DNA from: Candidatus Nomurabacteria bacterium RIFCSPHIGHO2_12_FULL_42_19
Lineage (GTDB): Bacteria; Patescibacteriota; Minisyncoccia; Phycocordibacterales; UBA9973
Length of the DNA stretch: 64,000 bases
Assembly (NCBI GenBank): GCA_001786955.1
Contig: MFUM01000008.1
Coordinates: 11,062 to 75,061 of the forward strand
Reading direction: 5' to 3'
Within the stretch, counting starts at the first letter, position 1. The number at the start of each line of letters is the position of its first letter. Shown here one piece after another: positions 34,125 to 53,207 of this stretch. The position numbers and the translations under genes were made by a program. The notes under the pieces are model-generated. The model had not been told where the DNA came from, ran no database searches, and saw nothing but the letters and a program-made list of their open reading frames with translations.

Positions 34125-34127
34125 TTA

Positions 34128-34540: not shown

Positions 34541-34897
34541 ATGAATAATAAAACTTTAAAAACAATAGACGCGGCAGGAAGGACCCTGGGAAGGGTTGCG
34601 AGCGAAGTTGCTATGTCGCTGATGGGCAAGACCAAGGCGACTTTTGAACGTAATAAATATTCAGGTTTTCCCGTCCGAGTGGTAAATGCTTCCAAGCTCC
34701 GCATCACGGATAAAAAACTGGAAGAAATTTATCATACCCGATATTCCGGCATTCCGGGCGGGCTCCGCATTTTAAAAGGCACGGAAACAGCCGATAAAAA
34801 GGGTTTAAAAGAATTAATCAGGCTTGCGACATACCAAATGCTGCCTTCAAACAAATTGCGCAGAATCATGATGAAAAATTTAAGGATCGAAGACTAG
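34541..34897 (+). CDS. rplM: 50S ribosomal protein L13 (short)
   Basis: IDAAGRTLGRVAS..A..LMGK, VVNASK, YSGIPGGL, MLP.NKL. Confidence 0.95.
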   Translation: MNNKTLKTIDAAGRTLGRVASEVAMSLMGKTKATFERNKYSGFPVRVVNASKLRITDKKLEEIYHTRYSGIPGGLRILKGTETADKKGLKELIRLATYQMLPSNKLRRIMMKNLRIED

Positions 34898-34904
34898 AAA
34901 CACT

Positions 34905-35366: not shown

Positions 35367-35371
35367 AAAAT

Positions 35372-35395
35372 AGCCGGCCTGCGCCGGCTTTTTTT
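35372..35395 (+). terminator. Intrinsic terminator after rpsI
   Basis: AGCCGGC-CTGC-GCCGGCT followed by a T run. Confidence 0.8.
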
Positions 35396-35504
35396 GCGCT
35401 TGCTCGGCCGGAGCTTTATTGTGAGTAGTAGCGAACAAAAGCGAGGCGGGGGCTGCGACCGAGTCTGAGCGACGGCGAGGACGAGAGTTGTGGTCTAAGA
35501 GATA

Positions 35505-35540
35505 ATAAAAAAATCCCTCTTCCGAGAGGGATTTTTTTAT
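35505..35540. terminator. Terminator-like hairpin upstream of grpE
   Basis: ATAAAAAAATCCCTCT-TCCG-AGAGGGATTTTTTTAT perfect inverted repeat. Confidence 0.75.
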
Positions 35541-35555
35541 GCTAATATATCACTT

Positions 35556-36164
35556 ATGAGCGATGAAGAAGATAAAAAACCGGAAAATATCGAGCCAAAA
35601 GAAGAATCAAAGCAAGACGACTCCGAAGTTTTAGAGTTTGAATTCAACGAGGACGGGGAAGAAGACCTCAAAAAAACTTTAAAAAAATTGAGGGCCGACT
35701 TGAAGCAGGCCAAAAAGGAAAAGGAAGAGTATCTGACCGGCTGGCAGAAAGAGCGGGCGGATTTTATCAACTACAAGAAGCAGGAAGACGACCGAAGGAC
35801 CGTTTTTTCCGAAGCCATACGGGAGCGGATTCTGACTCGTTTTCTTTCGGTGATTGACAGTTTTAATATGGCTTTTGCCAGCAAGGAAGCCTGGGATAAA
35901 ATTGACGAAACATGGCGCAAGGGGGTGGAACATATTTACGCGCAAATGAATGGAATCTTTGAAGAATACGGAGTGAAACCTGTGGGGGAAGCCGGGGAAA
36001 ATTTTGACCCGAATATTCACCAGTCCATAGATGTAGTAGAGACAGATAATAAAGATTTAGAGCACAAAGTCGCAACTGTAATCCAAAAAGGATACAAATT
36101 AGGTGAACGCGTAATTCGTCCGGCGAGGGTAAATATTTATGAGTTTAAGGAAAGTGAGCAATAA
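35556..36164 (+). CDS. grpE: Nucleotide exchange factor GrpE
   Basis: ERADFINYKK, FDPNIHQSI, VIQKGYKLGERVIRPARV. Confidence 0.95.
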   Translation: MSDEEDKKPENIEPKEESKQDDSEVLEFEFNEDGEEDLKKTLKKLRADLKQAKKEKEEYLTGWQKERADFINYKKQEDDRRTVFSEAIRERILTRFLSVIDSFNMAFASKEAWDKIDETWRKGVEHIYAQMNGIFEEYGVKPVGEAGENFDPNIHQSIDVVETDNKDLEHKVATVIQKGYKLGERVIRPARVNIYEFKESEQ

Positions 36165-36195
36165 TCTATTCTATAATTCTATAGAATATTAGAAT
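36165..36195 (+). repeat. 31-bp near-palindromic site, copy A
   Basis: TCTATTCTATAATTCTATAGAATATTAGAAT; identical at 47813-47843 and reverse-complemented at 39677-39707. Confidence 0.95.
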
Positions 36196-37849
36196 GAAAA
36201 CAGAAGCAAAAATCTGTGTTGATTGTAAAAAAGAATTCGAAATAAATTCGGGTGATTTGAATTTATACGAAAAAGTCGATATTGAATTGCCGACACTCTG
36301 TTTTTTTTGCCGAATAAAACTGCATTTATCTTTCTGGATGTTTGGAAAATTTCGTAAAGGTAAATCAGACCTCTCGGGGAAAAGTCTGATTACGGTTTTA
36401 CCGGAGATAAACAGGTATCCTATTTATACGCTTCACGAATGGCATAGTGATAAATGGGATGCTATGAATTTCGGGATAGATTATGATTCAAGCAGACCTT
36501 TTTTTGAGCAATTAAAAGAATTACAGGAAAAAGTTCCTCATCCGCATCAAAATGGCATAAAAAATACCGGATGCGATTGGTGCGATGATGTTTGGAATTC
36601 TAAAAATTGCTACCTTTCTCGTTCAATGGAAGAATGTGAAGATTTATACTATTCATATCGAAATGTTAAGGTGAAGAATTCTATAGATATGACCATCTGC
36701 TTTAACACAGAAAAATCTTATGATTCCGGTGATTGTCATAATTCATTCAGACTCTTTTATTCCAAGCATTCTCGTGATTGCATAGATTCACTTTTTTTAT
36801 ATGATTGCCGAAATTGCCAGAATTGTTTTATGTGCTGGAATTTACGCAATAAGTCATATTACATAGAGAATATTCAATACACAAAAGAAGCATACGAAGA
36901 AAAATTAAAATCATTTCAACTCGGTTCATATAAATTTATTCAATCTCTTAAAAAAAATTTTGAAGAAATAATCAAGAAAGAAGCAATTCATAGGGGAAAC
37001 TTCAACTTAAGAACATATAATTCAGACGGAGACTACTTATTGGATGTTAAAAACTGCCATAACTGTAATACCATTAGTGATTCGGAAGATTGTTGTAATT
37101 GCATTCGCGGGTTACATCAAAAATCCGACATTGATTCCGATGGTTGCTGGTATTCCGAAATGATAGGAAATTGTAGTTGTTGTATAGGGGGATATGCTCT
37201 TAAGTATTCTACTTGGTCCTCTTCGCGATATTCAGAGTATTTGGATTTGTGTATTGAGTGTGAATATTGCTTCGGCTGTATTGGATTAAAGAAAAAAAAG
37301 TATTGCATTTTAAATAAGCAATATAATAAAGAAGAATATGAGATTTTGAAAAATAAAATTATTTCTGACATGAGAAAAAGAGGGGAATACGGTCAATTTC
37401 TGCCCTATTCTATGAGCGCTGGTCCCTTCAACTTTTCTACCAGTTTTTTATATTTTCCGGAAACCAAAAAGGAAGATATTTTTAAACTCGGCGGTTATTG
37501 GGAAGATATAAGCGAAAATCAAATTGAAGGTATGCCGACGAACGAACTGCCCGACGATATAAAAGATGTTCCGGACACCATAATAAAAGAGGCTCTGATA
37601 TGCCCCGAAACAGGTTGGCGTTTCAATATTGCCCAAAATGAGCTTTCTTTCTATAAGGAAAACAATATTCCACTTCCGCGATATCATTTTGATGTACGAA
37701 CCAAAAATGCCCTGAAATACCTGACTGTCCTGGAATCTTACCCTTACAAATGTTTTTACTGCAAAAAGGATATAATGGCCTATTATCCGCCGGAATGGGG
37801 CTACCAAAAAATAGCCTGCGAGGAATGTTATAAACAGAATATCGCATAA
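36194..37849 (+). CDS. Cys-rich zinc-ribbon / Cys-periodic repeat protein, paralog 1
   Basis: CVDC..CFFC N-terminus, YDSSRPFFEQL, dense CxxCxxC core, C-terminal CFYC..CEECY. Confidence 0.85.
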   Translation: MKTEAKICVDCKKEFEINSGDLNLYEKVDIELPTLCFFCRIKLHLSFWMFGKFRKGKSDLSGKSLITVLPEINRYPIYTLHEWHSDKWDAMNFGIDYDSSRPFFEQLKELQEKVPHPHQNGIKNTGCDWCDDVWNSKNCYLSRSMEECEDLYYSYRNVKVKNSIDMTICFNTEKSYDSGDCHNSFRLFYSKHSRDCIDSLFLYDCRNCQNCFMCWNLRNKSYYIENIQYTKEAYEEKLKSFQLGSYKFIQSLKKNFEEIIKKEAIHRGNFNLRTYNSDGDYLLDVKNCHNCNTISDSEDCCNCIRGLHQKSDIDSDGCWYSEMIGNCSCCIGGYALKYSTWSSSRYSEYLDLCIECEYCFGCIGLKKKKYCILNKQYNKEEYEILKNKIISDMRKRGEYGQFLPYSMSAGPFNFSTSFLYFPETKKEDIFKLGGYWEDISENQIEGMPTNELPDDIKDVPDTIIKEALICPETGWRFNIAQNELSFYKENNIPLPRYHFDVRTKNALKYLTVLESYPYKCFYCKKDIMAYYPPEWGYQKIACEECYKQNIA

Positions 37850-37887
37850 CAGATTTTCACGGTCGCGATAAAGTGTTATATTTAAAA

Positions 37888-37963
37888 ATGAATCAAGAAA
37901 CTAAACAATGCCAAAACCCCGAACCAGAGCGAAGCTCGGTACGGGGCAGGTTGTAAAAAAGAT
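37888..37963 (+). pseudogene. Relic 5' end of a further Cys-rich paralog, frameshifted by a 34-bp palindromic insert
   Basis: Reads MNQETKQCQN-[CCCGAACCAGAGCGAAGCTCGGTACGGGGCAGGT]-CKKD, matching the family start MKSETKNCQNCKKD. Confidence 0.75.
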
Positions 37964-39667
37964 ATGGAGTATAAATCACAAAATGTGGTGTGTCAGAACT
38001 GTAAAGGTAATTTTATAATAGAGCCGGAGGATTTTTATTTCTATGAAAAAATAAAAGTCCCTCCGCCAACCTGGTGCCCGGAATGCCGGCAGCTTCGCCG
38101 CTATGCCTGGCGTAATGAACGCACCCTATACAGAAGGAACTGCGATTTATGCGGCAAGAACACGGTAACGATTTATTCTCCAAATAAGCCGCACAAGATG
38201 TATTGCCAGCCCTGTTGGTGGGGCGACGGCTGGGATCCGGCTTCCTATGGCCGTGATTTTGATTTTTCTCGGCCTTTTTTCGATCAATTTGCCGAATTGC
38301 AATTGGATGTGCCCCGCATGGCGCTCCTGAGTAAAAACAGCGTAAATTCAGAATACACCAACCATTCAGGGGACAATAAGAATGTTTACCTTTCTTTTGC
38401 AGCTTGGTCAGCCGAAGACGTTCTTTATAGCACCTGGGTTATGAAGTCCCGTGATTGTATGGACTGCAGTTTTGTTTACGATAAAGGCGAACGGCTGTAT
38501 GAAATAATCGATTCCCGAACCTCTTACGAGTGCCAGTACGGGCTATTTTTAAAAGATTGTTCCTCTTGTTACTATTGCTATGATTGCCGCGGGTGCAACC
38601 ATTGTTTTATGTCTTCTAACTTGCGCAATAAAAGTTATGTTTTTAAAAACAAACAATACACTCGGGAGGAATATTTAAAAAAAATAAAAGAATACGAATT
38701 ATCTTCTTTCTCAGCGCGAGAAAAACTGCAAAAAGAATTCCAGGACTTGATTGAAAAGGGTTCCATTCACCGCTACATAATCAGCGAACGTAATGTGAAT
38801 TCTGTCGGTTCTCTGATTTTTGACTGCAAAAATGTGACTCAATCTTTTGAAGTGAACAATGGGGAAGACAGCAAGTATATCTACGGCGCTCTGGATTTGA
38901 AAGATTGTATGGATATATATCATGTTGGATGGGCCACTACCGCGCTTGATTACGAATGCCATGGCTGCACTCGGATTTATGATTGTAAATTCTGCCATCT
39001 TTGTTATGACGACAACGGCGTGTCGTATTCCGACAGTTGCCAAAACAGCCAGAACCTTTTTGGTTGCGTGAGTATAAAAAAGGGCGAATATATGATTTTC
39101 AATAAAAAATACTCAAAAACCAATTATCTAGCGCTTAAGGAAAAAATAATAGAGCATATGAGAAAAATAGGAGAGTATGGGGGATTTTTCCCGCCGGCAA
39201 TTTCCCCAGTCGGCTACAACGAAACACAGGGGGCACTCTATGCTCCAATGACAAAAGAAGAAGTTTTGGCCAAGGGCTGGAAATGGGAGGAAAACATTCT
39301 GGGCACTTTCGGCAAAGAAACTATATTTCTCTCCGACATACCGGACAAAATTGAGGATGTTCCCGATAGTTTCTTGAAAGAAGTATTTTCCTGTATGGAA
39401 TGTTCCAAGAATTACAATATTACTCAAAATGAACTTCTTTTTTTGAAAAAAGAAAAAATTCCTTTACCCAGAAAGTGCCCGAATTGTCGTTACAAAAGAA
39501 GATTTAACCTCCGGCCTTTGCGAAAATTATGGCACCGGAGTTGTATGTGCGGTAAATCGGAGCACGGGCATTCGGCTAAATGCCCGAACGAATTTAAGAC
39601 CCCCTATGCCCCCGACCGGCCGGAAAAAGTGTATTGTGAGAGCTGCTACAACAAAGAAGTGTATTAA
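37964..39667 (+). CDS. Cys-rich zinc-ribbon / Cys-periodic repeat protein, paralog 2
   Basis: CQNC..PPPTWCPEC, WRNERTLY, CDLC..YCQPCWW, C-terminal PDRPEKVYCESCYNKEVY. Confidence 0.88.
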   Translation: MEYKSQNVVCQNCKGNFIIEPEDFYFYEKIKVPPPTWCPECRQLRRYAWRNERTLYRRNCDLCGKNTVTIYSPNKPHKMYCQPCWWGDGWDPASYGRDFDFSRPFFDQFAELQLDVPRMALLSKNSVNSEYTNHSGDNKNVYLSFAAWSAEDVLYSTWVMKSRDCMDCSFVYDKGERLYEIIDSRTSYECQYGLFLKDCSSCYYCYDCRGCNHCFMSSNLRNKSYVFKNKQYTREEYLKKIKEYELSSFSAREKLQKEFQDLIEKGSIHRYIISERNVNSVGSLIFDCKNVTQSFEVNNGEDSKYIYGALDLKDCMDIYHVGWATTALDYECHGCTRIYDCKFCHLCYDDNGVSYSDSCQNSQNLFGCVSIKKGEYMIFNKKYSKTNYLALKEKIIEHMRKIGEYGGFFPPAISPVGYNETQGALYAPMTKEEVLAKGWKWEENILGTFGKETIFLSDIPDKIEDVPDSFLKEVFSCMECSKNYNITQNELLFLKKEKIPLPRKCPNCRYKRRFNLRPLRKLWHRSCMCGKSEHGHSAKCPNEFKTPYAPDRPEKVYCESCYNKEVY

Positions 39668-39676
39668 ATATAAAGT

Positions 39677-39707
39677 ATTCTAATATTCTATAGAATTATA
39701 GAATAGA
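39677..39707 (-). repeat. 31-bp near-palindromic site, copy B (inverted)
   Basis: ATTCTAATATTCTATAGAATTATAGAATAGA is the exact reverse complement of copy A. Confidence 0.95.
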
Positions 39708-39712
39708 TAATT

Positions 39713-41455
39713 ATGAAAAGCGAGACAAAAAACTGCCAAAATTGCAAAAAGGATTTCACGATAGAACCGGATGATTTTGGGTTTTATGAGAAAATAAAAG
39801 TTCCGCCGCCGACTTTTTGTCCGGAATGCCGGCTTATTCGTCGGCTTGTCTGGCGCAACGAGAGAATATTATATCGCCGGATTTGTAATCTTTGCAATAA
39901 GAATATCATTTCCATGTATCATGAATCTGTGCCTTTTCCTGTGTATTGTCGGGAGTGCTGGTATGGGGACGGCTGGGACCCCACCTCTTACGGACGGGAA
40001 TACGATATGGCAAGGCCGTTTTTTGAGCAATATAAAGAGTTTTCCAATACTGTCCCGAGGCTGATGTTTTGGCAAAGAAATGCGATTAACTCGGATTATT
40101 CAAATCATGTAGCAGAATCAAGGAATGCTTACATGTCTGCATCTGTGATAAAAGAGTCGGAGAATGTTTTTTATTCAAAAAATATAGATGATTCAAGGGA
40201 TATAGTAGACTGTTTAAATATAATAAACGGATCGGAGCAACTATATGAGACCGTAGAAGCGCAGGGGAATTACAACTCGCAATATCTTCTCCTTTGCCGG
40301 AACACCCTGGATTCGTATTATTCGTTTGATTGCATAAATTGCAGTAATTGTTTTCTTTCTTATAACCTGCGCAATAAAAAATTCTGTATTAGAAATAAAC
40401 AATATTCGCAAAAAGAATATTTTCAAGAACTGGAAAAATTTAACTTAAAAAGCAGAACTTCGCGCGAGGTTTTACTTAAAGAATTTGAAGAGGTTAAAAA
40501 ACAAGCCATCTTCCGCTTTGGCAATATAACCAAGTGTGTGAATGTTACGGGTAACAATATGCTGAATGTGAAAAACGGCAAAAATTGTTTTGAAATATAT
40601 AATATAGAAAATGCAAGTTATTGTTATAGAATTCTTGATTCTAAAGATTGTGTGGATACGAGTTTTAGTATGAAATCAGAGTTACTCTATGAATATAGCT
40701 CGGGTGGTATGAATGATTACAATGTAAAATTTTCCTATTCCGCCATGAATTTTGTCCGAAATGCGGATTATGCCGAGTCCTGTATGAATTGCAGCAATAT
40801 TTTCGGCTGTATCTCACTTCGCGATGCGGAAAATGCCATTTTAAACAAAGTTTATTCCAAAAAAGAATTTGAAACACTAAGGTCAGAAATCATCAAGCAA
40901 ATGAGCGCCTTGCCTTTCATAGATAAAGGCGGAAGAAAATACGAGTACGGGGAATTTTTTCCCATAGAAATCAGTCCATGGGCATATAATGAAACATCAG
41001 CACAAGAAATTGCTCCCCTAAGCAAAGAATCAGCCCAAAAAAGCGGCTATTCGTGGCGCGACGCAGATGAAAAAAATTTCAATATTACAATGTCGGGAAA
41101 TATGATACCGGACAATATAGACGAAGTAGGGGAGAGTATTCTGAAAGAAGTTTTGGGCTGCGCGCATGAAGGGAAATGCAACCATCAATGTAATATCGCT
41201 TTTCGTATAACCGATTACGAGTTTAAGTTTTACAAAAAACACGACATACCTTTGCCGATTTTTTGCCCGAATTGCCGTTATTATGAGAGATTTAAAGTGA
41301 TGCCAGGGCTAAAATTATATAAAAGAAATTGCATGTGCGACAAAGCCGGTCACGGGCACAATGAAAAATGCCCGAATGAATTTGAGACAAGTTATTCCCC
41401 CGACCGGCCGGAAAAAGTGTATTGCGAAAGTTGTTACAACAAAGAAGTTTACTGA
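39713..41455 (+). CDS. Cys-rich zinc-ribbon / Cys-periodic repeat protein, paralog 3
   Basis: MKSETKNCQNCKKDFTIEP...CPEC; C-terminal PDRPEKVYCESCYNKEVY. Confidence 0.88.
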   Translation: MKSETKNCQNCKKDFTIEPDDFGFYEKIKVPPPTFCPECRLIRRLVWRNERILYRRICNLCNKNIISMYHESVPFPVYCRECWYGDGWDPTSYGREYDMARPFFEQYKEFSNTVPRLMFWQRNAINSDYSNHVAESRNAYMSASVIKESENVFYSKNIDDSRDIVDCLNIINGSEQLYETVEAQGNYNSQYLLLCRNTLDSYYSFDCINCSNCFLSYNLRNKKFCIRNKQYSQKEYFQELEKFNLKSRTSREVLLKEFEEVKKQAIFRFGNITKCVNVTGNNMLNVKNGKNCFEIYNIENASYCYRILDSKDCVDTSFSMKSELLYEYSSGGMNDYNVKFSYSAMNFVRNADYAESCMNCSNIFGCISLRDAENAILNKVYSKKEFETLRSEIIKQMSALPFIDKGGRKYEYGEFFPIEISPWAYNETSAQEIAPLSKESAQKSGYSWRDADEKNFNITMSGNMIPDNIDEVGESILKEVLGCAHEGKCNHQCNIAFRITDYEFKFYKKHDIPLPIFCPNCRYYERFKVMPGLKLYKRNCMCDKAGHGHNEKCPNEFETSYSPDRPEKVYCESCYNKEVY

Positions 41456-41568
41456 AAACTCTTGAAAACAACTTTTTGCAGGGGTTTTGAGCTTGACGGA
41501 GCGAAAACTTCAGAATTTTTTAAGCTTCAAAAAATTCGTACCGGAAAAAAGTTTGTTTTCAGGGTTTT
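41456..41568 (-). mobile_element. ~110-bp MITE-like element, copy 2 (inverted)
   Basis: Reverse complement TTTTTCCGGTACGAATTTTTTGAAGCTTAAAAAATTCTGAAG...CCGTC..GCTC.AAACCCCT aligns with 25158-25269. Confidence 0.7.
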
Positions 41569-42071
41569 TTCCCAAAAGCTTCAAATAAAATTTTCTTTGT
41601 TTCCTCGTCAATATTTTCGCTGACAATAATCATCATTTCGGTTGTCAGGCCCAAATCTTTTTTTATATTTGTAAATAAATGCTCAAAAGGGTAAGGAGAA
41701 ATCCAGGCGGAATTTTTCAGGCAGACGAAGCCGGCTTTTTTCAAAAGGTAGCGTAGGGATTCGCGTTCACTTTTTCTGCTCTCCGGCAAGTCGAGCAAAA
41801 TAATTCTCCAGAATCCGTCCCAACTTACCGGCACCGGCATCTCCTCATTCACCAACGTAATGCTGTGCAACTTCGCCTTACCTTTTTGGGTAATGCGTAA
41901 AAATGGCTGGTTGTCGGAGTTCTGTATCTCCGCATATCCGCCTTCTACCAGGTTTTTTACTGATCGGGTAAGGGCATAGGATGTTTTAAGCTCTGCAGTC
42001 GGTATAGCCGGTTTTTGGCCCAAAACCTCCAATATTTTCTTTGTATATCCTGATTTACTTGACATACCCAT
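41559..42071 (-). CDS. PaaX-like transcriptional regulator (wHTH plus PaaX-central / Cas2-like ferredoxin fold)
   Basis: LRITQKG wing, WDGFWRIILLDLPE..KSERESLR..LKKAGF..LKNSAWISPY. Confidence 0.8.
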   Translation of the reverse strand: MGMSSKSGYTKKILEVLGQKPAIPTAELKTSYALTRSVKNLVEGGYAEIQNSDNQPFLRITQKGKAKLHSITLVNEEMPVPVSWDGFWRIILLDLPESRKSERESLRYLLKKAGFVCLKNSAWISPYPFEHLFTNIKKDLGLTTEMMIIVSENIDEETKKILFEAFGKKP

Positions 42072-42122
42072 ATATTATAATATATATTACCTTTTGACAA
42101 GCATTCCGCGACCACGAAATAC

Positions 42123-42151
42123 TTGCTAAAAATAAATGATTGGTATATAAT
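42123..42151 (+). promoter_or_regulatory. Sigma-70-type promoter of dnaK
   Basis: TTGCTA-N17-TATAAT about 125 nt upstream of the dnaK ATG. Confidence 0.55.
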
Positions 42152-42274
42152 GAGTTTACAAAATTATTTATAAGCATTGCTCGAAGAAAATCAAACTTTC
42201 CTGCGTTAGGTCATAAGGATAATGCTCTTGGAAAGTTTATTTTCTTCTCGCAATAATTAATTATTAAAAAATAT

Positions 42275-44179
42275 ATGTCAAAAATAATAGGTATAGATTT
42301 GGGGACAACAAATTCGGCAGTTGCTGTGATTGAAGGAGGTGCGCCGAAAATTATTGAAAACGTTGAAGGCAACCGCACGACGCCTTCCGTTGTCGCGACC
42401 GCAAAAAATGGCGACCGCATCGTCGGTCTTCTTGCCAAGAGGCAGGCGGTGACAAATCCGGAAAACACGATAGCTGAAATCAAGCGTCTTATGGGGCACC
42501 GCTTTGATGACGTGGAAGTGCAGAAAGATAAGGAAACGGCCGCATTTAAAATTGAAGCGGGAGACGGCGGCGGAACGAAAGTAAAAATGTCGGACAAGTT
42601 CTACCGGCCAGAAGAAATCTCCGCGATGATTTTACAGAAAATAAAAACCGATGTTGAAGCAAAACTGGGAGAAAAAATTACCGAAGCGGTTATTACCGTG
42701 CCGGCCTATTTCAATGATGCGCAGAGAAAAGCGACCAAAGATGCCGGGGCCATCGCCGGACTGGATGTAAAACGCATCATCAACGAGCCGACGGCTGCCG
42801 CGTTGGCTTACGGATTTAATAAAAAGAAAAATGAAAAGATAGTCGTCTACGACTTCGGCGGAGGAACTTTTGATGTATCGGTGCTGGAAATCGGCGATGA
42901 TGTCATTGAAGTCAAGTCCACCGACGGCGACAGCCATATGGGCGGGGGCGACATAGACAGAAAGATAATAGCTTACATTGCCGAAGAATATAAAAAAGAT
43001 TCCGGTATTGATGTAATCAAAGACCCTCTGGCGCACCAGAGATTGAAGGAAGCGGCCGAAAAAGCCAAACACGAGCTTTCAACTACGATTGAAACCGAAA
43101 TCAACATACCCTTTATTACCTCAGATAGCTCCGGGCCAAAGCATTTATTGATGAAAATGACCCGCGCGACTTTGGAGTCTCTCGCCAAAGACTTGATTGA
43201 CCGTTCCATTGAAATTACCAAGAGAGCCTTGGCTGCTTCGCCGTTCAAGATGAATGAAATTAATGAAATTATTATGGTCGGCGGGCAGACCCGCATGCCG
43301 ATGATTGTGGAAGCCGTCAAGAATCTTTTCGGCAAAGACCCGAATATGTCCATCAATCCGGACGAAGTCGTCGCCTTGGGCGCCGCGGTCCAAGCCGGAG
43401 TGCTTCAGGGCGACGTGCGCGATGTTTTACTGCTTGATGTCATACCGCTTTCTTTGGGGATAGAGACATTGGGAGGCGTGGCCACAAAATTAATTGAAAG
43501 AAACACAACTATTCCTTCAAGCAAATCCCAGACATTCTCAACTGCCGCCGATAACCAAACTTCTGTGGAAATACACATTGTCCAGGGAGAGCGCCCGATG
43601 GCCTCCGACAACAAATCTCTCGGGCGATTTATCCTGGACGGAATTCCACCGGCGCCTCGGGGCATGCCGCAGATTGAAGTTGCTTTTGATGTGGATGCGA
43701 ATGGAATTCTGAATGTGGCGGCCAAAGATAAGGCTTCCGGCAAAAGCCAGTCCATTAGGATAGAAGCAAGCTCCGGACTGAAAGAAGAAGATATAAAGAA
43801 AATGCAGGCGGATGCGGAACTGCATGCCGAGGAAGACAAGAAGAAAAAAGAAAATGCCGAAGTGAAAAATACCGCGGAGATGATTATTTATACTGCCGAG
43901 AAAGCGCTAAAAGATAATGAAGAGAAAATTCCTGCAGATGTAAAAGATGGCGTAAATGCCAAGATAACCGCCTTGCGGGGAGTGAAAGATGGTGCCGACG
44001 GAGAGGCCATTAAAAAAGCCACCGAAGAGCTTTCCGCCGAAATGTCCAAAATTGGCGAAGCGATGGCCAAGGCCGGCGCAACTCCTCAATCTCCCAAAAC
44101 TCCCGAAGAGCAAAATCCCGAAGTTCACGATGCAGAATTCAAGGAGAAAAAAGAAGGGGAGGAAGGCGAAGTAAAATAA
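42275..44179 (+). CDS. dnaK: Chaperone DnaK
   Basis: [49 protein letters not shown]. Confidence 0.99.
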
Positions 44180-44976
44180 TGAAATTACCCCTAAATAATT
44201 TAAATTATCCAGTAAAAATTTCAATTGGAAATAGCTCTGGCTCTGGTTTTTTGATTAGTTATGAGAATAATATATACCTTGTTACAGCTAAACATGTTGT
44301 TTATCAGCAAGACAACATAACAAAAAATTATGTATTATTTGGCGATAAATTAAAAATTACTTGCTATACCTTCCTAGAGCAGTTATCACCACATATACCA
44401 AGAGTATATGAAATTGAAGTTACAAAAATTTTATTAGATAATAATTTAAAGTCTCATCCTACAGCAGATATTGTAGTTATAAAATTAGGGTCCAAAGACG
44501 ACAAATCAGTACTTAGTTTTGTGCCTGGTATTTCAGTAATACAAAATGCCGAAGGGGCACTTGTCCATTATTTAATGGATGGGTCAAGAAAATTTGATGA
44601 TTTAGAAATAACAAATGATGTATTCGTCTTAGGGTATCCAGTTTCCTTGAGTACTTCGGAAATGAAACAAATAAATTATGATGCACCCCTTGTACGTAAG
44701 GGAATAATAGCAGGTAAGAATTATGAAAATAAAACTATTGTGTTAGATTGCCCAGTATATGGTGGAAATAGTGGAGGCATGGTACTTGAAATGAATTCAG
44801 AAAAATCAAAAATACATTTGATTGGAGTAGTAGTACAATTTATTCCGTTTGTGGATCAATGGAGGAATGTTAGATTTCCAGAACTTTACAATTCGAATTT
44901 CCAAAATTCTGGCTATTCGATTGCCCTGCCAGTAGATTATATATACGATTTGATTAAAGAAATTGGAACAACTTAA
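44179..44976 (+). CDS. Trypsin-like serine protease (AT-rich gene)
   Basis: GSGFLI, VTAKHV (His), ADIVVI (Asp), GGNSGG (Ser). Confidence 0.85.
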   Translation: MKLPLNNLNYPVKISIGNSSGSGFLISYENNIYLVTAKHVVYQQDNITKNYVLFGDKLKITCYTFLEQLSPHIPRVYEIEVTKILLDNNLKSHPTADIVVIKLGSKDDKSVLSFVPGISVIQNAEGALVHYLMDGSRKFDDLEITNDVFVLGYPVSLSTSEMKQINYDAPLVRKGIIAGKNYENKTIVLDCPVYGGNSGGMVLEMNSEKSKIHLIGVVVQFIPFVDQWRNVRFPELYNSNFQNSGYSIALPVDYIYDLIKEIGTT

Positions 44977-45018
44977 ATAGGGCTTTTTGGTTTGGCTAAT
45001 TTTTGCTATAATTTAAAA

Positions 45019-45666
45019 ATGAAATACTCTGCGGTGATTTTTGACTGGGACGGGACACTAGGAATGACGCTTCATATATGGCTGGAAGCATATAAAAGTG
45101 AACTAAAAAATCTAGGTATAGAACTATCAGACCAAACTATTATTGAGGATTTTTTCTATGAGCACAAAAAGACAGCAACAAAATATCCAAATATTGATTT
45201 CGATCCTTATATAGAAAAAGTCCGCAAATATATGATTAGTCATGCACCTTTAATGAAACTTTATTCCGGAGTGAATGAGACATTAGAGAAATTACAAACG
45301 AGAGGTATTGTTCTCGCTTTGGTTTCTTCAAGCCCCAGAAAATTACTTGAAGAAGTGCTTGAACTGACCGGGCTGTCGAAATTTTTCTCAGCCATTTCCG
45401 GGTTTGACGATATTATGAAACACAAACCTGACCCAGAACCTTTTTTGTATATTATGGAAATTGCAAAACTTGATCCGAAAACCACAATTATTTTAGGAGA
45501 TTCACCACACGACATCATTGCCGCAAAAGCAGCAGGCATAGATTCTTGTCTTTTCTTGCCTCCGGAAAATAAAATATTTTATGATTTCGATCAGCTTAAA
45601 AAGACAAACCCAAATTATTCCATTGAAACTCTGGAAGAATTTTTGGAGCTTATTTTAAATAGTTAA
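45019..45666 (+). CDS. HAD-superfamily hydrolase (phosphoglycolate phosphatase-like)
   Basis: FDWDGTL, LVSS, KPDPEP, GDSPHDI.AAKAAG. Confidence 0.92.
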   Translation: MKYSAVIFDWDGTLGMTLHIWLEAYKSELKNLGIELSDQTIIEDFFYEHKKTATKYPNIDFDPYIEKVRKYMISHAPLMKLYSGVNETLEKLQTRGIVLALVSSSPRKLLEEVLELTGLSKFFSAISGFDDIMKHKPDPEPFLYIMEIAKLDPKTTIILGDSPHDIIAAKAAGIDSCLFLPPENKIFYDFDQLKKTNPNYSIETLEEFLELILNS

Positions 45667-45707
45667 AAATACTGGCAAAAAAGACCATTTTATTGTAAAA
45701 TATTAAC

Positions 45708-47810
45708 ATGGATTTGCCGGAAATACCCATAAATAAAGATGTTACTTATCTCGGTCTAACGACTTATCGGGACAAAAACACACTTTTTGGCATTAAGCGC
45801 AAAGACCGGCGTCAGCATGTTTATCTGCTCGGAAAATCCGGGACCGGTAAATCTGTCCTAATGTTCAACATGATTATCCAGAATATCCAGAACGGCGAAG
45901 GGGTTTGCTTGGTTGACCCGCACGGAGAGAATGTTGAAGCGGTTTTATCCGCCATTCCGCCTCATCGCATGAAAGATGTCATTTATTTTAATCCGGCCGA
46001 TGCGGACTATCATATCGGTTTTAACGTTTTGGAGCTGATTGACCCGCAATACAAGCATCTGGTGGCTTCCGGCTTGATGGGTATTTTTACCAAAATCTGG
46101 GCCAATGCTTGGAGTGCCCGGATGGAATATATTTTAAATAATACGATTTTGGCCCTGCTGGATACGCCGGGCACGACGCTTCTTGGTATTCCCCGAATGC
46201 TGGTGGATAAAGATTACCGTCAGAAAATAATTTCCAATTTGAAAGACCCCGTCATCAAGGCTTTTTGGGTTCACGAATACGAAGCTTGGCAGGATAAATT
46301 CAGAAATGAAGCCATTGCGCCGATTCAGAACAAAGTTGGGCAGTTTCTTTCCACTTCTATCATCCGGAATGTTGTCGGCCAGTCCAAAAGCACCATCAAT
46401 GTTTTTGACATGATGAATGAGGGAAAGATTTTCCTGGTAAATGTTTCCAAAGGGCGTATCGGCGAAGACAACTCCGCCTTGCTGGGCGGCATGATTATTA
46501 CCAAAATCCAGCTGGCAGCCATGGAACGTGTGCGCATTCCCGAAGAACATCGCAGGGACTTTTACCTTTACGTGGATGAATTCCAGAATTTCGTGACGGA
46601 TGCTTTCGCGGGCATTTTATCCGAAGCCAGAAAATACAGACTGAATCTGACCGTGGCTCATCAATATACTGCCCAACTTGTTTCGGATAAAAGCACGGCG
46701 GTGCGCGATGCCGTTTTCGGCAACGTCGGGACGATGATAGTTTTTCGTGTTGGTGCGGACGATGCCGATTTTCTGGAAAAAGAATTCGAACCGGAATTTA
46801 TTCCTCAGGACATAGTTAATTTACCGAACTATAAAGTTTATATGAAATTAATGATAGACGGCGTAACTTCCAGGCCGTTTTCCGCCAAGACTTTGCCACA
46901 GATGGTAAAGTCCGGTGATAAAAAAATAGAAGAAGAGGTTATCCAGTCTTCGCGCGCCCTTTATTGCCGTCCGAAAGAGGTTGTGGAGCGGGAAATCAAT
47001 GACTGGAGCGGAATGTCTCTCGGCAATGACAATGAAACTGCCCCGGGAAGCCTGGAAAAATTTCCGGCTGTTTGTTCATTTTGCAAGAAAGAAACAACCG
47101 TGCCTTTCAAGCCGGAGCCGGGCAGGACAGTTTATTGCAAAGATTGCATAGCCAGAATAAAATCCGGGGAGATAAAAGTGGAAAAGAGCGGAGAACATCA
47201 AATCAAGCATGATGAAACAAAATTTTTTAAGCCATTAGCCGACATAGGGATAGAGTTTGAACAAAAAGACAGGGGTAAAATAGAAGAAGGGGAGAGATAT
47301 CCGGAGCGGGGAGATCACCACTTGGATAAACCTAAATCTGGAGTATTCGGAGCGATTAAAAAAGTTTTTACCTCGCCGCCGAAAGTTTCTAAACCTGCCC
47401 ACGCAGGCGGGGATAATTCGGCCTTGAGAGAAGTTTTAAAAAAGATAGATGAACCTATTTCACTCGATACGCTAAAAAATAAAACTAAAGAAGTCAGTAA
47501 AATTTCTATGCCCTCAAAAGACAGAGCCGCCAGCCCGGAAGATATGAATAAATTAAAAGATTTGATTGCGGAAAAAATTCCTGCCCGCAATGCTTCTAGC
47601 ATAGCTGATGCAGGCGGGGAACCCAAAGAAGAAAACACCACCCCGGCTAAAGCCACCCCTCCTCCGAAAGGAGGGGAAGAAATTCCCCAAAAACCTACAC
47701 CCGTCTCTACTCAAGGCTCCGGCGAGGCAAAGCCAGTTCAAGAGCCTCCACTGACAAAAGGAAACATTCAAGAAATCCCCGAAGATGTCTTAAGAAAAAT
47801 TTTAGAATAG
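45708..47810 (+). CDS. VirD4/VirB4 (TraD/HerA-like) ATPase with CxxC-x17-CxxC domain and disordered tail
   Basis: DRRQHVYLLGKSGTGKS, VDPHGE, LYVDEFQNF, ILSEARKY; CSFC-x17-CKDC. Confidence 0.88.
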   Translation: MDLPEIPINKDVTYLGLTTYRDKNTLFGIKRKDRRQHVYLLGKSGTGKSVLMFNMIIQNIQNGEGVCLVDPHGENVEAVLSAIPPHRMKDVIYFNPADADYHIGFNVLELIDPQYKHLVASGLMGIFTKIWANAWSARMEYILNNTILALLDTPGTTLLGIPRMLVDKDYRQKIISNLKDPVIKAFWVHEYEAWQDKFRNEAIAPIQNKVGQFLSTSIIRNVVGQSKSTINVFDMMNEGKIFLVNVSKGRIGEDNSALLGGMIITKIQLAAMERVRIPEEHRRDFYLYVDEFQNFVTDAFAGILSEARKYRLNLTVAHQYTAQLVSDKSTAVRDAVFGNVGTMIVFRVGADDADFLEKEFEPEFIPQDIVNLPNYKVYMKLMIDGVTSRPFSAKTLPQMVKSGDKKIEEEVIQSSRALYCRPKEVVEREINDWSGMSLGNDNETAPGSLEKFPAVCSFCKKETTVPFKPEPGRTVYCKDCIARIKSGEIKVEKSGEHQIKHDETKFFKPLADIGIEFEQKDRGKIEEGERYPERGDHHLDKPKSGVFGAIKKVFTSPPKVSKPAHAGGDNSALREVLKKIDEPISLDTLKNKTKEVSKISMPSKDRAASPEDMNKLKDLIAEKIPARNASSIADAGGEPKEENTTPAKATPPPKGGEEIPQKPTPVSTQGSGEAKPVQEPPLTKGNIQEIPEDVLRKILE

Positions 47811-47812
47811 AG

Positions 47813-47843
47813 TCTATTCTATAATTCTATAGAATATTAGAAT
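47813..47843 (+). repeat. 31-bp near-palindromic site, copy C
   Basis: Identical to copy A; identity extends through ATGAAAACAGAA. Confidence 0.95.
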
Positions 47844-49602
47844 GAAAACAGAAACAAGAAATTGTCAAAACTGTAAAAAGGACTTCACGATAGAACCCGA
47901 GGATTTTAATTTCTACGAGAAAATCAAAGTTCCTCCGCCGACCTTTTGTCATTTGTGTCGGGCACAGAGGAGATTGGCCTTTAGAAATGAGAGAAAACTT
48001 TTTAAAGTAAAAGATGCTTTTACTGGAGAAAGTATTTTTTCCACTTTTCCCACAGAAAGTGGCAGAAAGATAATTAAGAGAGAAATCTGGATGGGAGACA
48101 CTTGGGATGGCATGGAATACGGTCGGGAGTATGATTTTTCAAAACCTTTTCTACAGCAGTTGCGCGAACTTATCAACTCTTTGCCGATATACAATTTTAA
48201 CGTTATACGCATGGTAAATAGTCCATATTCTTTCAATGCTACGGACCTCAAAAATAGTTATCTTGTCTGCAACTCAAGTTATTCAGAGGATTGCATGTAC
48301 GGGAACGCCATTGATAATTGTAAAGATTGTGTAGATAACTCTCATATTCATGAGTCCGAGCGGTGTTATGAATCCTTTTGGCTCGCCAAATGTTATCAAT
48401 GCTATTTTACCCAGAGGGCAGAGGAGTCCAGAAATCTATGGTTTTGTCGTGGGTGTGTAGGCTGCCAAGATTGTTTCGGGTGTGCTAATTTAGTCAATGC
48501 TTCGTATTGCATTTTTAATAAAAAATATAACCCAGATGAATATCGTAATATTATAAAAGGAATGGAGTTAGATACATACGAAGGAATAATGGTGGCCAGA
48601 GAAAAGGCGCGCGTATTTTGGGATACCCAGCCCGTAAAAAGTATTCAAGGAATAAAGAATGTGAACTCTTCTGGTTCCTATATTACTCACTGCAGGAATG
48701 TTAAGGATAGTTATTTAGTTCGGGAGAGTGAAAACATCCGCTACTGCCAATATCTGCAAGTACCCTCCAGTAAAGAGAATTACGATGTGACAGTGTGGGG
48801 AAACAATACCGAGCTTTGTTACGAGACGGTAGAGTGCGGAGATGATTCGTATAATAATAAATTTACTTGGAATTGTTGGCCTGCTTGTAGAAATCTTGAA
48901 TACTCTACGCATCTTTTCAGTTCTTCGGATTGTTTTGGATGTTCAGGACTAAAGAAAAAACAATATTGCATTTTAAACAAGCAGTATACGAAAGAGGACT
49001 ATAAAGCAATGGTGGAGAAGATTAAAAAACACATGGATGAAATGCCTTATGTCGATGTTCGTGGCCTAATCTATAAATACGGAGAATTTTTACCAATAGA
49101 ATTTTGTCCTTTCGGTTATAACAATACTTTAGCAGGCCAGCATTTTACCTTATCTAAAGAAGAAGCGCTAAAGAATAATTATGGATGGGTTGACGGAGAA
49201 CGAGGAGAATACACTATTACTAAAAAATCTTCGGAACTCCCGGAGTCTATTACCAGCACTTCAGATGATATTTTGAAAGAAGTTTTCGAATGTCAATCAT
49301 GCAAAAATGCTTACCGCGTTCTCGAAAATGAATTGATTTTTTTGCGCAAGGAAAATTTGTCGGCTCCACGTCTCTGTAGTGAATGTAGGCATGAGCGTAG
49401 AATCAACGACAGGCTGAAATTATTTTTATACGAAAGATCCTGTATGTGCGCTGGTATTACCGACCAGACCAATACATATAAAAATACCATTTCTCATAAT
49501 CACAAAGATTTTCCGTGTGGAGAGGTATTCAAAACCGGCTATGCTCCAGACCGCCCGGAAATTGTTTACTGCGAGAAATGTTACCAACAAGAAGTGTATT
49601 GA
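47842..49602 (+). CDS. Cys-rich zinc-ribbon / Cys-periodic repeat protein, paralog 4
   Basis: MKTETRNCQNCKKDFTIEP..CHLC; C-terminal PDRPEIVYCEKCYQQEVY. Confidence 0.88.
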   Translation: MKTETRNCQNCKKDFTIEPEDFNFYEKIKVPPPTFCHLCRAQRRLAFRNERKLFKVKDAFTGESIFSTFPTESGRKIIKREIWMGDTWDGMEYGREYDFSKPFLQQLRELINSLPIYNFNVIRMVNSPYSFNATDLKNSYLVCNSSYSEDCMYGNAIDNCKDCVDNSHIHESERCYESFWLAKCYQCYFTQRAEESRNLWFCRGCVGCQDCFGCANLVNASYCIFNKKYNPDEYRNIIKGMELDTYEGIMVAREKARVFWDTQPVKSIQGIKNVNSSGSYITHCRNVKDSYLVRESENIRYCQYLQVPSSKENYDVTVWGNNTELCYETVECGDDSYNNKFTWNCWPACRNLEYSTHLFSSSDCFGCSGLKKKQYCILNKQYTKEDYKAMVEKIKKHMDEMPYVDVRGLIYKYGEFLPIEFCPFGYNNTLAGQHFTLSKEEALKNNYGWVDGERGEYTITKKSSELPESITSTSDDILKEVFECQSCKNAYRVLENELIFLRKENLSAPRLCSECRHERRINDRLKLFLYERSCMCAGITDQTNTYKNTISHNHKDFPCGEVFKTGYAPDRPEIVYCEKCYQQEVY

Positions 49603-49639: not shown

Positions 49640-51391
49640 ATGAATACAAAAACAGAAACTAGAATATGCCAGAACTGTAAAAAGGACTTCACGATAGAAC
49701 CGGAGGATTTTAATTTTTATGAGAAAATGGCGGTGCCAGCTCCGACTTGGTGTCCTGATTGTCGTTTGCAGAGGCGCCTCACTTTTCGCAACGAAAGAAC
49801 TTTTTACAAACGCCCATGCGATCTATGTGGTGTAAGCACTATTTCAAGATATGATCCCTCTAAGGGAGAGTTAAGTTATTGTGGGGAATGCTGGTGGAGT
49901 GACAAATGGAATCCCGCAAGCTACGGACAGGGCTATGATTTTTCGAGACCATTTTTTGAGCAATTTTCGGAGCTTATGAAAAAAGTTCCGCATCAAAATC
50001 TATCTGTAAGCTATAAGACACTCACTAACAGTGATTTTACAAACATGAATCATTACTTGAAAAATTGTTATTATATATTTAACTCCGACTACGATGAGAG
50101 ATGTTTGTACGGAGAGGAGATAGAACACAGTGCCGATTGTATGGATATGACGATGGCCGAAAACACCCAACTTGCCTATGAGAGCGTAAATTGCAATAAA
50201 TGCTATCAAATTTATTATTCCGTAGATTGCGAAAGTTCCCATGATATTTGGTTTTCTAAGAATTTAGTTGGCTGTTCGAATTGCTTCAGTTGTATTAATT
50301 TGCGTGGTCAACAATATTGCATTTTCAACGAAAAATATAGCCGAGAAGATTATCTAAAAAAACTACAGAAGTTTAATCTAGGTTCTTATGCTGGCACTCA
50401 AGGAATTAAAAAAGAAGCTGCAGGATTCTGGCTCAAATTCCCAAATAAATACATGCATGGAATTCAGAATTTGGATTCCACCGGTGACTATATCTATAAT
50501 TCCAAATATGTAAAAAAATCATTCGTTATTGCAGGAGGAGAATATTGCAAATATTGTTTCCTGCTGATTGGTAAAAATAATAAAGAATGTTATGACTTCA
50601 CGCAGTTTGGCGAGAACACGGAAAAAGTATACGAATCATTAGTTTCTGGGAATGGCATCAGTAATGTTATTGGGGGCATCGTGACTCTCGAAGGAAGAAA
50701 TATAAGATATTCTGTGGATTGCCGTGATAGCAATAGATTTGGTTGTGTAGGGATACGTGATAAAAAACATTATATTTTCAACAAAGAATATACAAAGGAG
50801 GAATATGAAAATTTAGTGCCGAAAATAGTTGAACACATGAATAGCATGCCTTATATTGACAAGAAGGGCTGCCAATATGTTTACGGCGATTTCTTCCCGA
50901 CAGAAATTTCTCCCTATAGTTATAATGAAACCACTGCTCAGGAATTTTTTCCATTAACTAAGCAAGAAGCCGGAGAACAAGGATATTCATGGAAAGAACC
51001 GAAGGAAAGAAATTATAAAATAACTATAGAATCGGAAAATTTACCCGATAATATTAAGGATATTCCAGACGATATGGTATCCGCGGTAATCGGTTGTGAG
51101 CATGGAGGTAAATGCAAAGAACAATGCACTATCGCTTTTAAAATCATAGAACCTGAATTGCAATTTTATAAATCACAAAATTTGCCACTTCCGCATTTGT
51201 GTCCTAATTGCAGACATTACCAAAGAGTTTTAAACAGAAACCCAAATAAATTTTGGCATAGACAATGCATGTGCGACAAAAAGCATGTTCATCACGAAGG
51301 GCAATGTGAAGTCGAATTTGAGACTTCATACGCCCCCGAGCGACCAGAAATTGTATATTGCGAAAAATGTTACCAGCAAGAGGTGTATTAA
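49640..51391 (+). CDS. Cys-rich zinc-ribbon / Cys-periodic repeat protein, paralog 5
   Basis: CQNCKKDFTIEP..CPDC; C-terminal PERPEIVYCEKCYQQEVY. Confidence 0.88.
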   Translation: MNTKTETRICQNCKKDFTIEPEDFNFYEKMAVPAPTWCPDCRLQRRLTFRNERTFYKRPCDLCGVSTISRYDPSKGELSYCGECWWSDKWNPASYGQGYDFSRPFFEQFSELMKKVPHQNLSVSYKTLTNSDFTNMNHYLKNCYYIFNSDYDERCLYGEEIEHSADCMDMTMAENTQLAYESVNCNKCYQIYYSVDCESSHDIWFSKNLVGCSNCFSCINLRGQQYCIFNEKYSREDYLKKLQKFNLGSYAGTQGIKKEAAGFWLKFPNKYMHGIQNLDSTGDYIYNSKYVKKSFVIAGGEYCKYCFLLIGKNNKECYDFTQFGENTEKVYESLVSGNGISNVIGGIVTLEGRNIRYSVDCRDSNRFGCVGIRDKKHYIFNKEYTKEEYENLVPKIVEHMNSMPYIDKKGCQYVYGDFFPTEISPYSYNETTAQEFFPLTKQEAGEQGYSWKEPKERNYKITIESENLPDNIKDIPDDMVSAVIGCEHGGKCKEQCTIAFKIIEPELQFYKSQNLPLPHLCPNCRHYQRVLNRNPNKFWHRQCMCDKKHVHHEGQCEVEFETSYAPERPEIVYCEKCYQQEVY

Positions 51392-51434
51392 TATCTTATT
51401 CTAGTGTTTTGCAAAAGACTGAAATAATAAAAAC

Positions 51435-53207
51435 ATGAAAAGCGAAACTAAAAATTGTCAAAATTGCAAAAAAGATTTCATGATAGAATCGGAGGATTTT
51501 AATTTTTATGAGAAAATTAAAGTTCCTCCGCCGACTTTTTGCCCTGAATGTAGGCTAATTCGCAGAATGACTTGGCGCAACGAGCGATCACTTTTTAAAA
51601 GAGTTTGCGCAAAAACGGGAGAACAAATAATAACCATGTTTCATCCCGAAATTAATATGGTGGTGTATGACCACGACGTGTGGTGGAGCGATAAATGGGA
51701 GCCGACGGATTACGGAAAAGATTACGATTTTTCTCGACCTTTTTTTGAACAGTTTAGGGAACTATTCCAAAAAGTACCGCTTGCAAATTTAGGGAATTCA
51801 AACTGTAAAGGAAGTCCGTACGGTAATCACAATGCGGATTGCAAATATTGCTATTTGACATACGCTTCTTTTAATAATGAACGAACACATTATTCTTATG
51901 GAGTAGTTGAAACGAAAGATTGTGTAGATATGTATAAATGCGGTAAATCTGAATTAAGTTACAACGACACCCTTTGTGCCGGCTTATATAAAACCCATTT
52001 TTCTTACGATTCCGATGAGTCGATAAATTCTTTTTTCTTAAAGTATTGCAAAAATCTGCAGGATTGCATTGGCTGTGTTAATTTAAGGAACAAGAGTCAT
52101 TGCATTTTAAATGTGCAATATACGAAGGAAGAATATAAAAAGAAAAAAAAAGAATTGGACTTCGGCAGCTATCGAATTCTCTCTGAATTTAAAGATTCTT
52201 ACGACAAATTTGTTCTTAATTTTCCAAACAGATACGCAAGTATTATAAAATCCACCGAAGCAACTGGCGACGAAATTATGAATTCCAAAAATATAAAAAA
52301 TTCTTTTGATATTTTTGGAGAGGCTGAAGATTCAAAATATTTATTTCACTGCGTAAGTATTAAAGACAGTTATGACATGTATGGCGCCGGATTGGCGTCT
52401 CTTATGTATGAGGGGATAGATGCTGGCATAGACGCGTCAAAAGAACTGTTCTGCGCGATTGCCCATAGTTGTTTGGATATTTATTATTCTTATATGTGTT
52501 TTAGCTCAAAAAATCTTTTTGGCTGTATTGGGTTGCGAGGTAAGCAATATTGTATTTTAAATAAGCAATATTCCAAAGAGGAATACTTTAATTTATTACC
52601 TAAAATTATTGAACACATGAACACCATGCCTTTTAAAGATAAAAAAGGTCTAATTTACAAATATGGAGAATTTTTTCCATCCGAATTGTCGCCTTTTGCT
52701 TATAATGAAACGATGGCTCAGGAGTATTTTACTAAAACAAAAGAAGAAATAATTCAAAAGGGGCATGTTTACCGAACACCAACTGAAAAAGATTATCAAG
52801 TTACCATATTGAGTAAAGATTTGCCGGATCACATCAGAGATGTTCCTGAAACCATACTTGAGGAAATTATCGCTTGTCCTAACAATGGACAAGAATCAAC
52901 TCAATGCACTAAGGCTTATCGCATCACTAAACCGGAATTAGATTTTTTAAAAAATAATAATATTACACTACCAAGATATTGTCCGAATTGTAGACACTAC
53001 GGAAGGCTGAAGCAAAGAAATCCGTTTCATCTTTGGCGAGGCAAATGCCAGTGTGCTGGAGATTATTCCAAAAACAAAAAATATAAAAACACAATGGAGC
53101 ATATCCACGGAAACAAACCATGTCTGAATGAGTTTGAAACCCCATACGCTCCCGAGCGGTCGGAAATAATTTACTGCGAAAAGTGTTATCAGCAGGAAGT
53201 ATATTAG
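51435..53207 (+). CDS. Cys-rich zinc-ribbon / Cys-periodic repeat protein, paralog 6
   Basis: MKSETKNCQNCKKDF..CPEC; C-terminal PERSEIIYCEKCYQQEVY. Confidence 0.88.
   Translation: MKSETKNCQNCKKDFMIESEDFNFYEKIKVPPPTFCPECRLIRRMTWRNERSLFKRVCAKTGEQIITMFHPEINMVVYDHDVWWSDKWEPTDYGKDYDFSRPFFEQFRELFQKVPLANLGNSNCKGSPYGNHNADCKYCYLTYASFNNERTHYSYGVVETKDCVDMYKCGKSELSYNDTLCAGLYKTHFSYDSDESINSFFLKYCKNLQDCIGCVNLRNKSHCILNVQYTKEEYKKKKKELDFGSYRILSEFKDSYDKFVLNFPNRYASIIKSTEATGDEIMNSKNIKNSFDIFGEAEDSKYLFHCVSIKDSYDMYGAGLASLMYEGIDAGIDASKELFCAIAHSCLDIYYSYMCFSSKNLFGCIGLRGKQYCILNKQYSKEEYFNLLPKIIEHMNTMPFKDKKGLIYKYGEFFPSELSPFAYNETMAQEYFTKTKEEIIQKGHVYRTPTEKDYQVTILSKDLPDHIRDVPETILEEIIACPNNGQESTQCTKAYRITKPELDFLKNNNITLPRYCPNCRHYGRLKQRNPFHLWRGKCQCAGDYSKNKKYKNTMEHIHGNKPCLNEFETPYAPERSEIIYCEKCYQQEVY

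Follow-up and report, generated by a model that had tools for sequence, protein, structure and literature searches.

A 31-bp near-palindrome in front of Cys-rich genes of a Candidatus Nomurabacteria genome as a candidate promoter-operator of a small ArsR-like regulator

The stretch of DNA considered here (the window) comprises 64,000 nt of one contig of the 656-kb genome of Candidatus Nomurabacteria bacterium RIFCSPHIGHO2_12_FULL_42_19 (genome G000, its contigs carrying C-numbers). It contains three identical copies of a 31-bp near-palindrome, each placed in front of a gene for a large Cys-rich protein. With a probability of roughly 57%, this 31-mer is the promoter-operator of a small ArsR-like regulator, which has been dispersed by movement of the regulator's own gene.

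In the window the 31-mer was registered in three places with no mismatches, and none of 100 shuffled windows had a match to it at three or fewer mismatches:

36165..36195, + strand: copy A; 28-bp core at 36168-36195, inner TAGAAT at 36182-36187 ending 6 nt before the ATG of Cys-rich paralog 1
39677..39707, − strand: copy B; core at 39677-39704, outer TAGAAT (+ strand) ending 8 nt before the ATG of paralog 3
47813..47843, + strand: copy C; core at 47816-47843, inner TAGAAT ending 6 nt before the ATG of paralog 4

The core consists of four 6-bp boxes, two ATTCTA followed by two TAGAAT, separated by 2-nt spacers, and 12 of its 14 base pairs are complementary. Copy A directly adjoins the stop codon of a grpE-like gene (36164) and overlaps by 2 nt with the ATG at 36194. 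Copy C begins 2 nt past the stop codon of a gene for a type IV coupling protein (T4CP)-like ATPase (47810) and runs into the ATG at 47842. Copy B follows the stop codon of paralog 2 at a distance of 9 nt, the end of its core being located 8 nt ahead of the ATG at 39713. Thus, the preliminary description of this DNA was right in reporting three identical 31-mers with the middle one reverse-complemented, a span from stop codon to ATG at copies A and C, an inner 28-bp dyad with a 2-bp asymmetry, and a site that stayed constant in front of diverged genes (the six paralogs of the window share 27–45% pairwise identity). Folding of the window copies as single strands is weak and not significant (z from −1.7 to −1.9), and the Rfam scan of positions 35000-54000 gave no match.

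Two further copies were found in the genome at C2:13615 and C2:13895, 280 bp apart and away from Cys-rich genes. Between them lies a 90-aa frame of ArsR/HlyU-like winged-helix type (C2:13652-13924), whose last nine residues and stop codon are encoded by the downstream copy; the upstream copy has the same sequence as the core of copy B. Bracketing of this kind is a rule for the family. Among 66 distinct metagenome homologues, collected by protein search and not by motif, 65 have the site on both sides (a loose pattern was used, and one upstream match is weak), so that an inverted repeat covers the position of the regulator gene's own promoter in 65 of 66, with the spacing to ATG in agreement. 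In a mixed set of homologues, partly gathered by motif, 54 of 64 were bracketed versus only 1 of 582 control open reading frames (ORFs) of G000. Upstream and downstream copies covary between subfamilies, including a quite different palindrome at locus L049. The genome also has a second ArsR-like gene (C1:5606-5905), flanked by its own GCGC-centred variant of the site (C1:5569-5934). Two lone copies of this variant are present at C8:81310 and C8:83861, one of which ends a gene whose orthologue in genome G081 precedes the other site type. At locus L061 (G009) the stop codon of the regulator gene is succeeded by a tandem array, in which the 8-bp unit of the site is repeated about nine times, and then by a full site.

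All five regulators tested matched PF01022 above the cut-off, and the regulator scored below every NCBIfam cut-off (48.3 vs 55 bits). Its closest solved relatives by sequence are HlyU, CadC, SqrR, CzrA and NolR, with HlyU the best (E 6e-10), and the fold of its structural model (predicted local distance difference test, pLDDT, 81.7) matches MarR, HlyU and AspA about equally. Assignment to the metalloregulators was rejected, since the Cys/His metal-binding site is missing in the alignment: the 14 aligned proteins have neither Cys nor a C-terminal His/Asp cluster. With the non-metal members (HlyU, NolR, PagR, SqrR/BigR, SdpR) the regulator shares the size of about 90 aa and the order of helices and wing. 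HlyU is described as a dimer on a 17-bp imperfect palindrome (PMC4330345) and as attenuating a DNA cruciform (PMC10325908). Unlike the sites of these proteins, the one described here has four boxes in 28 bp, stands on both sides of the gene, once in its last codons, and has lone copies that are dispersed and homogenised. No operator for an ArsR-type regulator of Patescibacteria was found in the open-access literature.

The position of the boxes would suit a promoter. In G000 a −10-like hexamer ends 6 nt before the first ATG at 96 of 563 starts, versus 2–32 starts for each of the other distances, and this peak suggests that leaderless mRNAs may be widespread in the organism. The TAGAAT boxes of the window copies end 6–8 nt before the ATG, which matches this peak. 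When distances between site and ATG were collected, one maximum fell at −2 (28 of 111), where, as for copies A and C, precisely 6 nt separate the inner TAGAAT from the start codon, although this spacing is partly forced because the last AT of the site can itself start the ATG. The second maximum, at +6 to +9 (53 of 111), would use the outer box, as in copy B. A sigma-70 scan of 35400-48200 listed no full −35/−10 promoter on the TAGAAT boxes of the site.

A motif scan of GTDB matched at least 127 loci, and since Patescibacteria groups are named in 61 of the 80 loci with titles, the motif is placed mainly there. Among 212 congeneric genomes the TATA-centred site was found in 70 and was unmatched in 142, while the reversed pattern used as a control gave none; 72 of the 212 carry the regulator gene. 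(These tallies, as well as those of the genus on lone sites, junctions, distances and trees, include the unpublished genomes G112 and G113, with G114 in one grpE-related tally, and no claim hangs on these alone.) Of the 25 genomes with at least three sites, 22 carry the regulator gene, versus 21 of the 142 without a site, the threshold of three being chosen because the unit of gene and flanking sites itself accounts for one or two sites per genome. Beyond Patescibacteria, three Phycisphaerae genomes contain 26, 30 and 31 near-identical sites, some of them doublets 72 bp apart within longer repeats. Their regulator homologue has the site on one or both sides, and the protein of G236 is 53% identical. 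No regulator homologue was detected in the viral contigs or plasmids searched; two viral contigs (L382 and L383) carry one site each, and another pattern gave no viral loci.

At least 131 distinct sites, a part of the total, were collected from the genus. The regulator gene is flanked by 59 of them, 15 fall within long ORFs, and the remaining 57 are lone. Of these lone sites, 27 immediately precede a Cys-rich gene and 30 do not, 5 of the latter being placed only 3′ of one, whereas Cys-rich genes make up 9 of about 593 ORFs in G000. The 27 do not represent 27 events, because they are spread over about ten recurring junctions. Other lone copies were found between thyA and folA, after rseP and between convergent genes. 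The preliminary description had regarded scattering before many unrelated genes as the mark of a generic repeat, and this holds for about half of the lone sites. Taken together, the −10 spacing and the bias to starts of Cys-rich genes suggest selection for function. In-frame copies recur at the same positions in genes that we take, judging by their motifs, to be mnmA-, iscS- and tsaD-like, and form a clean 13-residue insertion in a presumably murD-like one. In one mnmA-like gene (L132) two in-frame copies are separated by 66 bp. In genome G056 (L002, L020-L027) a perfect palindrome occurs eleven times in identical form, in most cases extended by inverted arms of 7–10 bp that are specific to the locus.

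Comparison of orthologous junctions points to gains of the site. Among the best 30 grpE loci of 120 matching genomes, 3 have the site, 15 have a Cys-rich ORF overlapping the grpE stop codon with no site, and 2 have a different palindrome; the site is found at 2 of the 30 T4CP loci. The full site–gene–site unit occupies the T4CP–Cys junction of copy C in G069 (L270), the position behind the paralog-1 orthologue and before a Cys-rich gene in G155 (L267), and junctions between two Cys-rich genes, that is the type of copy B, in G151 and G166 (L263, L280). Most full units sit behind fba. Genome G003 has a lone, hybrid-looking site between fba and a gene for a flavin adenine dinucleotide (FAD)-oxidase-like protein, exactly where G026 and G066 hold the full unit. 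The interval between these two genes is a hotspot of accessory genes, and tens of different proteins are encoded immediately behind the regulator among 63 loci (L384-L463). Since the whole unit occupies in relatives the junctions where copies B and C stand in the window, lone copies are likely its scars. From these sequence comparisons we infer that the unit may move and leave lone sites behind. Plain recombination between repeats explains loss of the unit better than its gain. Host genes ending in Glu–stop share microhomology with the site at the grpE and T4CP junctions; an explanation based on it was not adopted, since it is missing at the ends of Cys-rich genes, thyA and rseP.

Based on these data the following scheme can be assumed. 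The regulator would bind the 28-bp site, probably as two dimers, as its fold and the bracketing suggest. Binding would cover the leaderless promoter and thus repress both the regulator gene and whichever gene follows a copy, so that Cys-rich paralogs 1, 3 and 4 become candidate targets in the window. Recombination between the two direct repeats of about 30 bp may drop the regulator gene and leave one site, re-entry at existing sites may move the gene and homogenise the copies, and template switching between arms may flip the inner spacers and lengthen the arms. Of the three roles offered in the preliminary description, that of an operator is thus supported with another partner, most likely the 90-aa ArsR-like protein of C2 in place of the PaaX-like one. 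The tiny mobile element finds partial support in copies gained at junctions mostly empty in relatives and in the in-frame copies. The recombination site retains only the movement of the regulator gene and the reshuffling of accessory genes. A bolder version of the scheme is put forward tentatively, and we consider it doubtful as a whole: a minimal mobile unit of about 310 bp, in which a winged-helix gene writes its own site into its last codons, hops with no nuclease of its own, leaves portable promoter-operators (here ahead of the large family of Cys-rich genes), rearranges accessory genes and was transferred between Patescibacteria and Planctomycetota, the site being represented in the latter by a family similar to repetitive extragenic palindromes (REP).

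The 2-bp asymmetry was expected to give the site a direction, and this expectation failed. At the grpE junction of five relatives (G034, G067, G072, G073 and G088) the core is flipped to the orientation of copy B, with flanks and gene order unchanged, and the reversed orientation of copy B in the window thus probably arose by micro-inversion. At 132 GTDB sites complementarity extends through the free positions and into as many as five flanking bases, far beyond that of shuffled controls, with a mean arm extension of 3.1 vs 0.86 nt, a difference inflated by related sequences. Homogenisation of arms and inversion of spacers are attributed to template switching in yeast (PMC8604942). The site is therefore asymmetric with no conserved direction, because cores flip in place and arms homogenise.

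Several points weigh against the proposed reading. The first codon of the regulator gene in G000 is ATA instead of ATG, so the protein may not be made there, with its sites intact; ATG, GTG or TTG is found within six codons of the expected start in all 66 distinct metagenome homologues. Many copies sit where no promoter is, including the 15 of 131 genus sites inside long ORFs and L012, and for these as well as for several sites between convergent genes (L002, L011, L026, L030) a role of promoter or scar is hard to accept. A regulator match is missing in 19 of the 70 site-bearing congeners. Of two other genomes, G239 has 3 sites with no match, and G240 has 8 sites with a weak, unbracketed one. 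The partly forced −2 spacing belongs here as well. In favour of it, lone sites are modestly nearer to the unit of their own genome than to permuted ones (mean distance 3.10 vs 3.80, p=0.016, 42 sites of 14 genomes), but the significance expressed by this p-value, as by all others here, is overstated because kin are not independent, and an exact match to the own unit or its hybrid was found for just 10 of the 42. In a tree of 222 nt a single origin of the units at Cys loci was rejected (approximately unbiased test, p-AU 0.0007, 8 rows) and was still rejected (p-AU 0.0016) when a duplicate, a row with an unknown upstream gene and a long outgroup were dropped, but it was no longer rejected once two units of the purN locus were added (p-AU 0.053).

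The copies inside genes bring to the fore another explanation, that the site is a selfish palindrome of REP or RPE type, which a trans-acting nuclease copies to places that tolerate it (behind stop codons, in protein loops), with the winged-helix protein a dedicated binder or a passenger and any effects on Cys-rich genes incidental. Its main support is the copy pattern in Phycisphaerae, where 26–31 sites, some in doublets, represent REP-like behaviour. The in-frame copies and the arms covarying at free positions and into the flanks fit it too, as do the many other palindrome families of G000 and the occupation of the same junctions by other families in relatives. One gene between two palindromes, with lone copies elsewhere and some of them coding, is the layout of REPtrons and TIRtrons (PMC3733652), and dispersed extragenic and in-frame copies are indeed found here. 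The enclosed gene is nevertheless not a Y1 HUH transposase, as in REP systems with their REP-associated tyrosine transposases (RAYT). It encodes a DNA-binding protein with no nuclease domain and no HUH/Tyr catalytic motifs. The site is AT-rich, folds weakly in its window copies, has no GTAG/CGTC tag in the flanks of 132 sites, and occurs in 1–31 copies versus hundreds. The two Y1/RAYT-like genes of G000 are flanked by other palindromes. These two genes (C10:52321-53070 and C3:17208-17967) are each bracketed by a perfect palindrome of their own, lone copies of which are found elsewhere. The −10 spacing and the preference for starts of Cys-rich genes also suggest functional selection, and we regard this explanation as unlikely.

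A true site-specific recombination site, at which a host recombinase shuffles accessory genes, including Cys-rich ones, in an integron-like manner and the downstream site of the regulator provides a promoter for arrivals, is rather improbable. Sites of the Xer/dif, pdif and integron attC arrays are also about 28 bp long, fit between stop and start codons and have variable accessory neighbours, and an 11-6-11 division of the 28 bp is conceivable. The unit is followed by highly variable genes, some accessory genes being found on either side of the regulator. A third good site completes a site–gene–site array around an accessory gene at 8 of the 66 metagenome loci, the enclosed gene being Cys-rich at three of them (L430, L433, L451); 16 loci fitted the loose pattern, of which 8 were judged to be chance. 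Some site-mediated shuffling is therefore possible, yet most accessory genes (58 of 66 loci) have no second site. Tyrosine recombinases require matched overlaps, while in most units the two sites disagree in their central six bases, the hexamer of the window copies being itself palindromic, and orientation flips with no rearrangement. No link to a recombinase was found either. The Xer/integron reading was rejected, given that G000 has one Xer-like gene, that the Xer family is present in 5 of 5 site-free genomes, and that no integron integrase exceeds the cut-off in G000 (its single tyrosine recombinase reaches 131 vs 265 bits for TIGR02249).

The rearrangements suggested for the window, inversion of 36.2-39.7 kb between copies A and B and excision of the dnaK block between A and C, gained no support, though the test is weak. 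No inverted Cys-rich gene was seen at the 30 grpE and 30 T4CP junctions. The proposed check of junction reads was made with Logan contigs of four runs over 33500-53400, and among the 15 joints shown of 364 none links two sites, a comparison that rules out nothing rare because such contigs are interrupted at the repeat and lose rare variants. In run X1, which may be the source sample, the depth of unique pieces is 57–68 both inside and outside the dnaK block.

It is very improbable that the site organises the chromosome in the manner of the pNOB8 AspA centromere or of matS, with a protein coating or bridging scattered palindromes so that any position is useful. AspA, a centromere-binding small winged helix, is described as assembling in several dimers on a palindrome that precedes its own gene (PMC5120986). 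It ranks fourth among the fold matches of the regulator, with a root-mean-square deviation of 1.3 over 66 columns, and copies inside genes and between convergent genes would be understandable. But by fold score AspA is indistinguishable from HlyU and MarR, and unlike the pNOB8 system the unit has no parA or parB gene beside it in the loci read, was not found on plasmids or viral contigs, and is patchily distributed: the TATA-centred pattern is unmatched in 142 of 212 congeners, and copy numbers range from 0 to 31. The last candidate, an operator of the PaaX-like protein controlling Cys-rich genes, is favoured by proximity only and can practically be dismissed, because 5 of 5 congeners free of the site have its gene, the site is missing upstream of this gene, whose 3′ end carries a different repeat of about 70 bp, and the site brackets another gene.

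The genes around the copies are as follows:

35556..36164, + strand: grpE-like gene, presumably grpE judging by its sequence; its stop codon abuts copy A
36194..37849, + strand: Cys-rich paralog 1 (551 aa), putative target
37964..39667, + strand: Cys-rich paralog 2 (567 aa), with no 31-mer in front
39713..41455, + strand: Cys-rich paralog 3 (580 aa), putative target
41559..42071, − strand: PaaX-like gene (PF20803), rejected as partner of the 31-mer
45708..47810, + strand: T4CP-like ATPase gene; its stop codon lies 2 nt ahead of copy C
47842..49602, + strand: Cys-rich paralog 4 (586 aa), putative target
49640..53207, + strand: Cys-rich paralogs 5 and 6, with no 31-mer in front

The genome has nine Cys-rich paralogs in total, and the site precedes only three of them. 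None of the six in the window matched Pfam above the cut-off, and none of three tested matched NCBIfam. Paralog 2 gave weak treble-clef zinc-finger matches below the cut-off, the model of paralog 3 (pLDDT 81.7) had no PDB fold match at E≤0.001, and neighbours of the family in the Atlas are unnamed zinc-binding clusters. Other repeats are also present in this region. Directly after the stop codon of paralog 1 another imperfect palindrome with a CGCG-rich core occupies 37846-37879, close relatives of which are found between grpE and the Cys-rich gene in G069 and G086. A remnant of a Cys-gene start (37888-37960, MNQETKQCQN...), broken by a GC-rich hairpin at 37917-37946 (z −4.8), immediately precedes paralog 2. 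The PaaX-associated repeat mentioned above (about 41480-41555) has about 11 copies in the genome.

Thus, the proposed reading offers a testable pair of protein and site, whose candidate targets belong to an uncharacterised multi-copy zinc-ribbon family, together with a rule for promoters, in which 6 nt separate the −10 box from the ATG. If hopping of the regulator gene with formation of scars is true, copying of a 30-bp promoter-operator would be a way in which a regulon can be built and rewired, and the REPtron-like layout would exist with no transposase.

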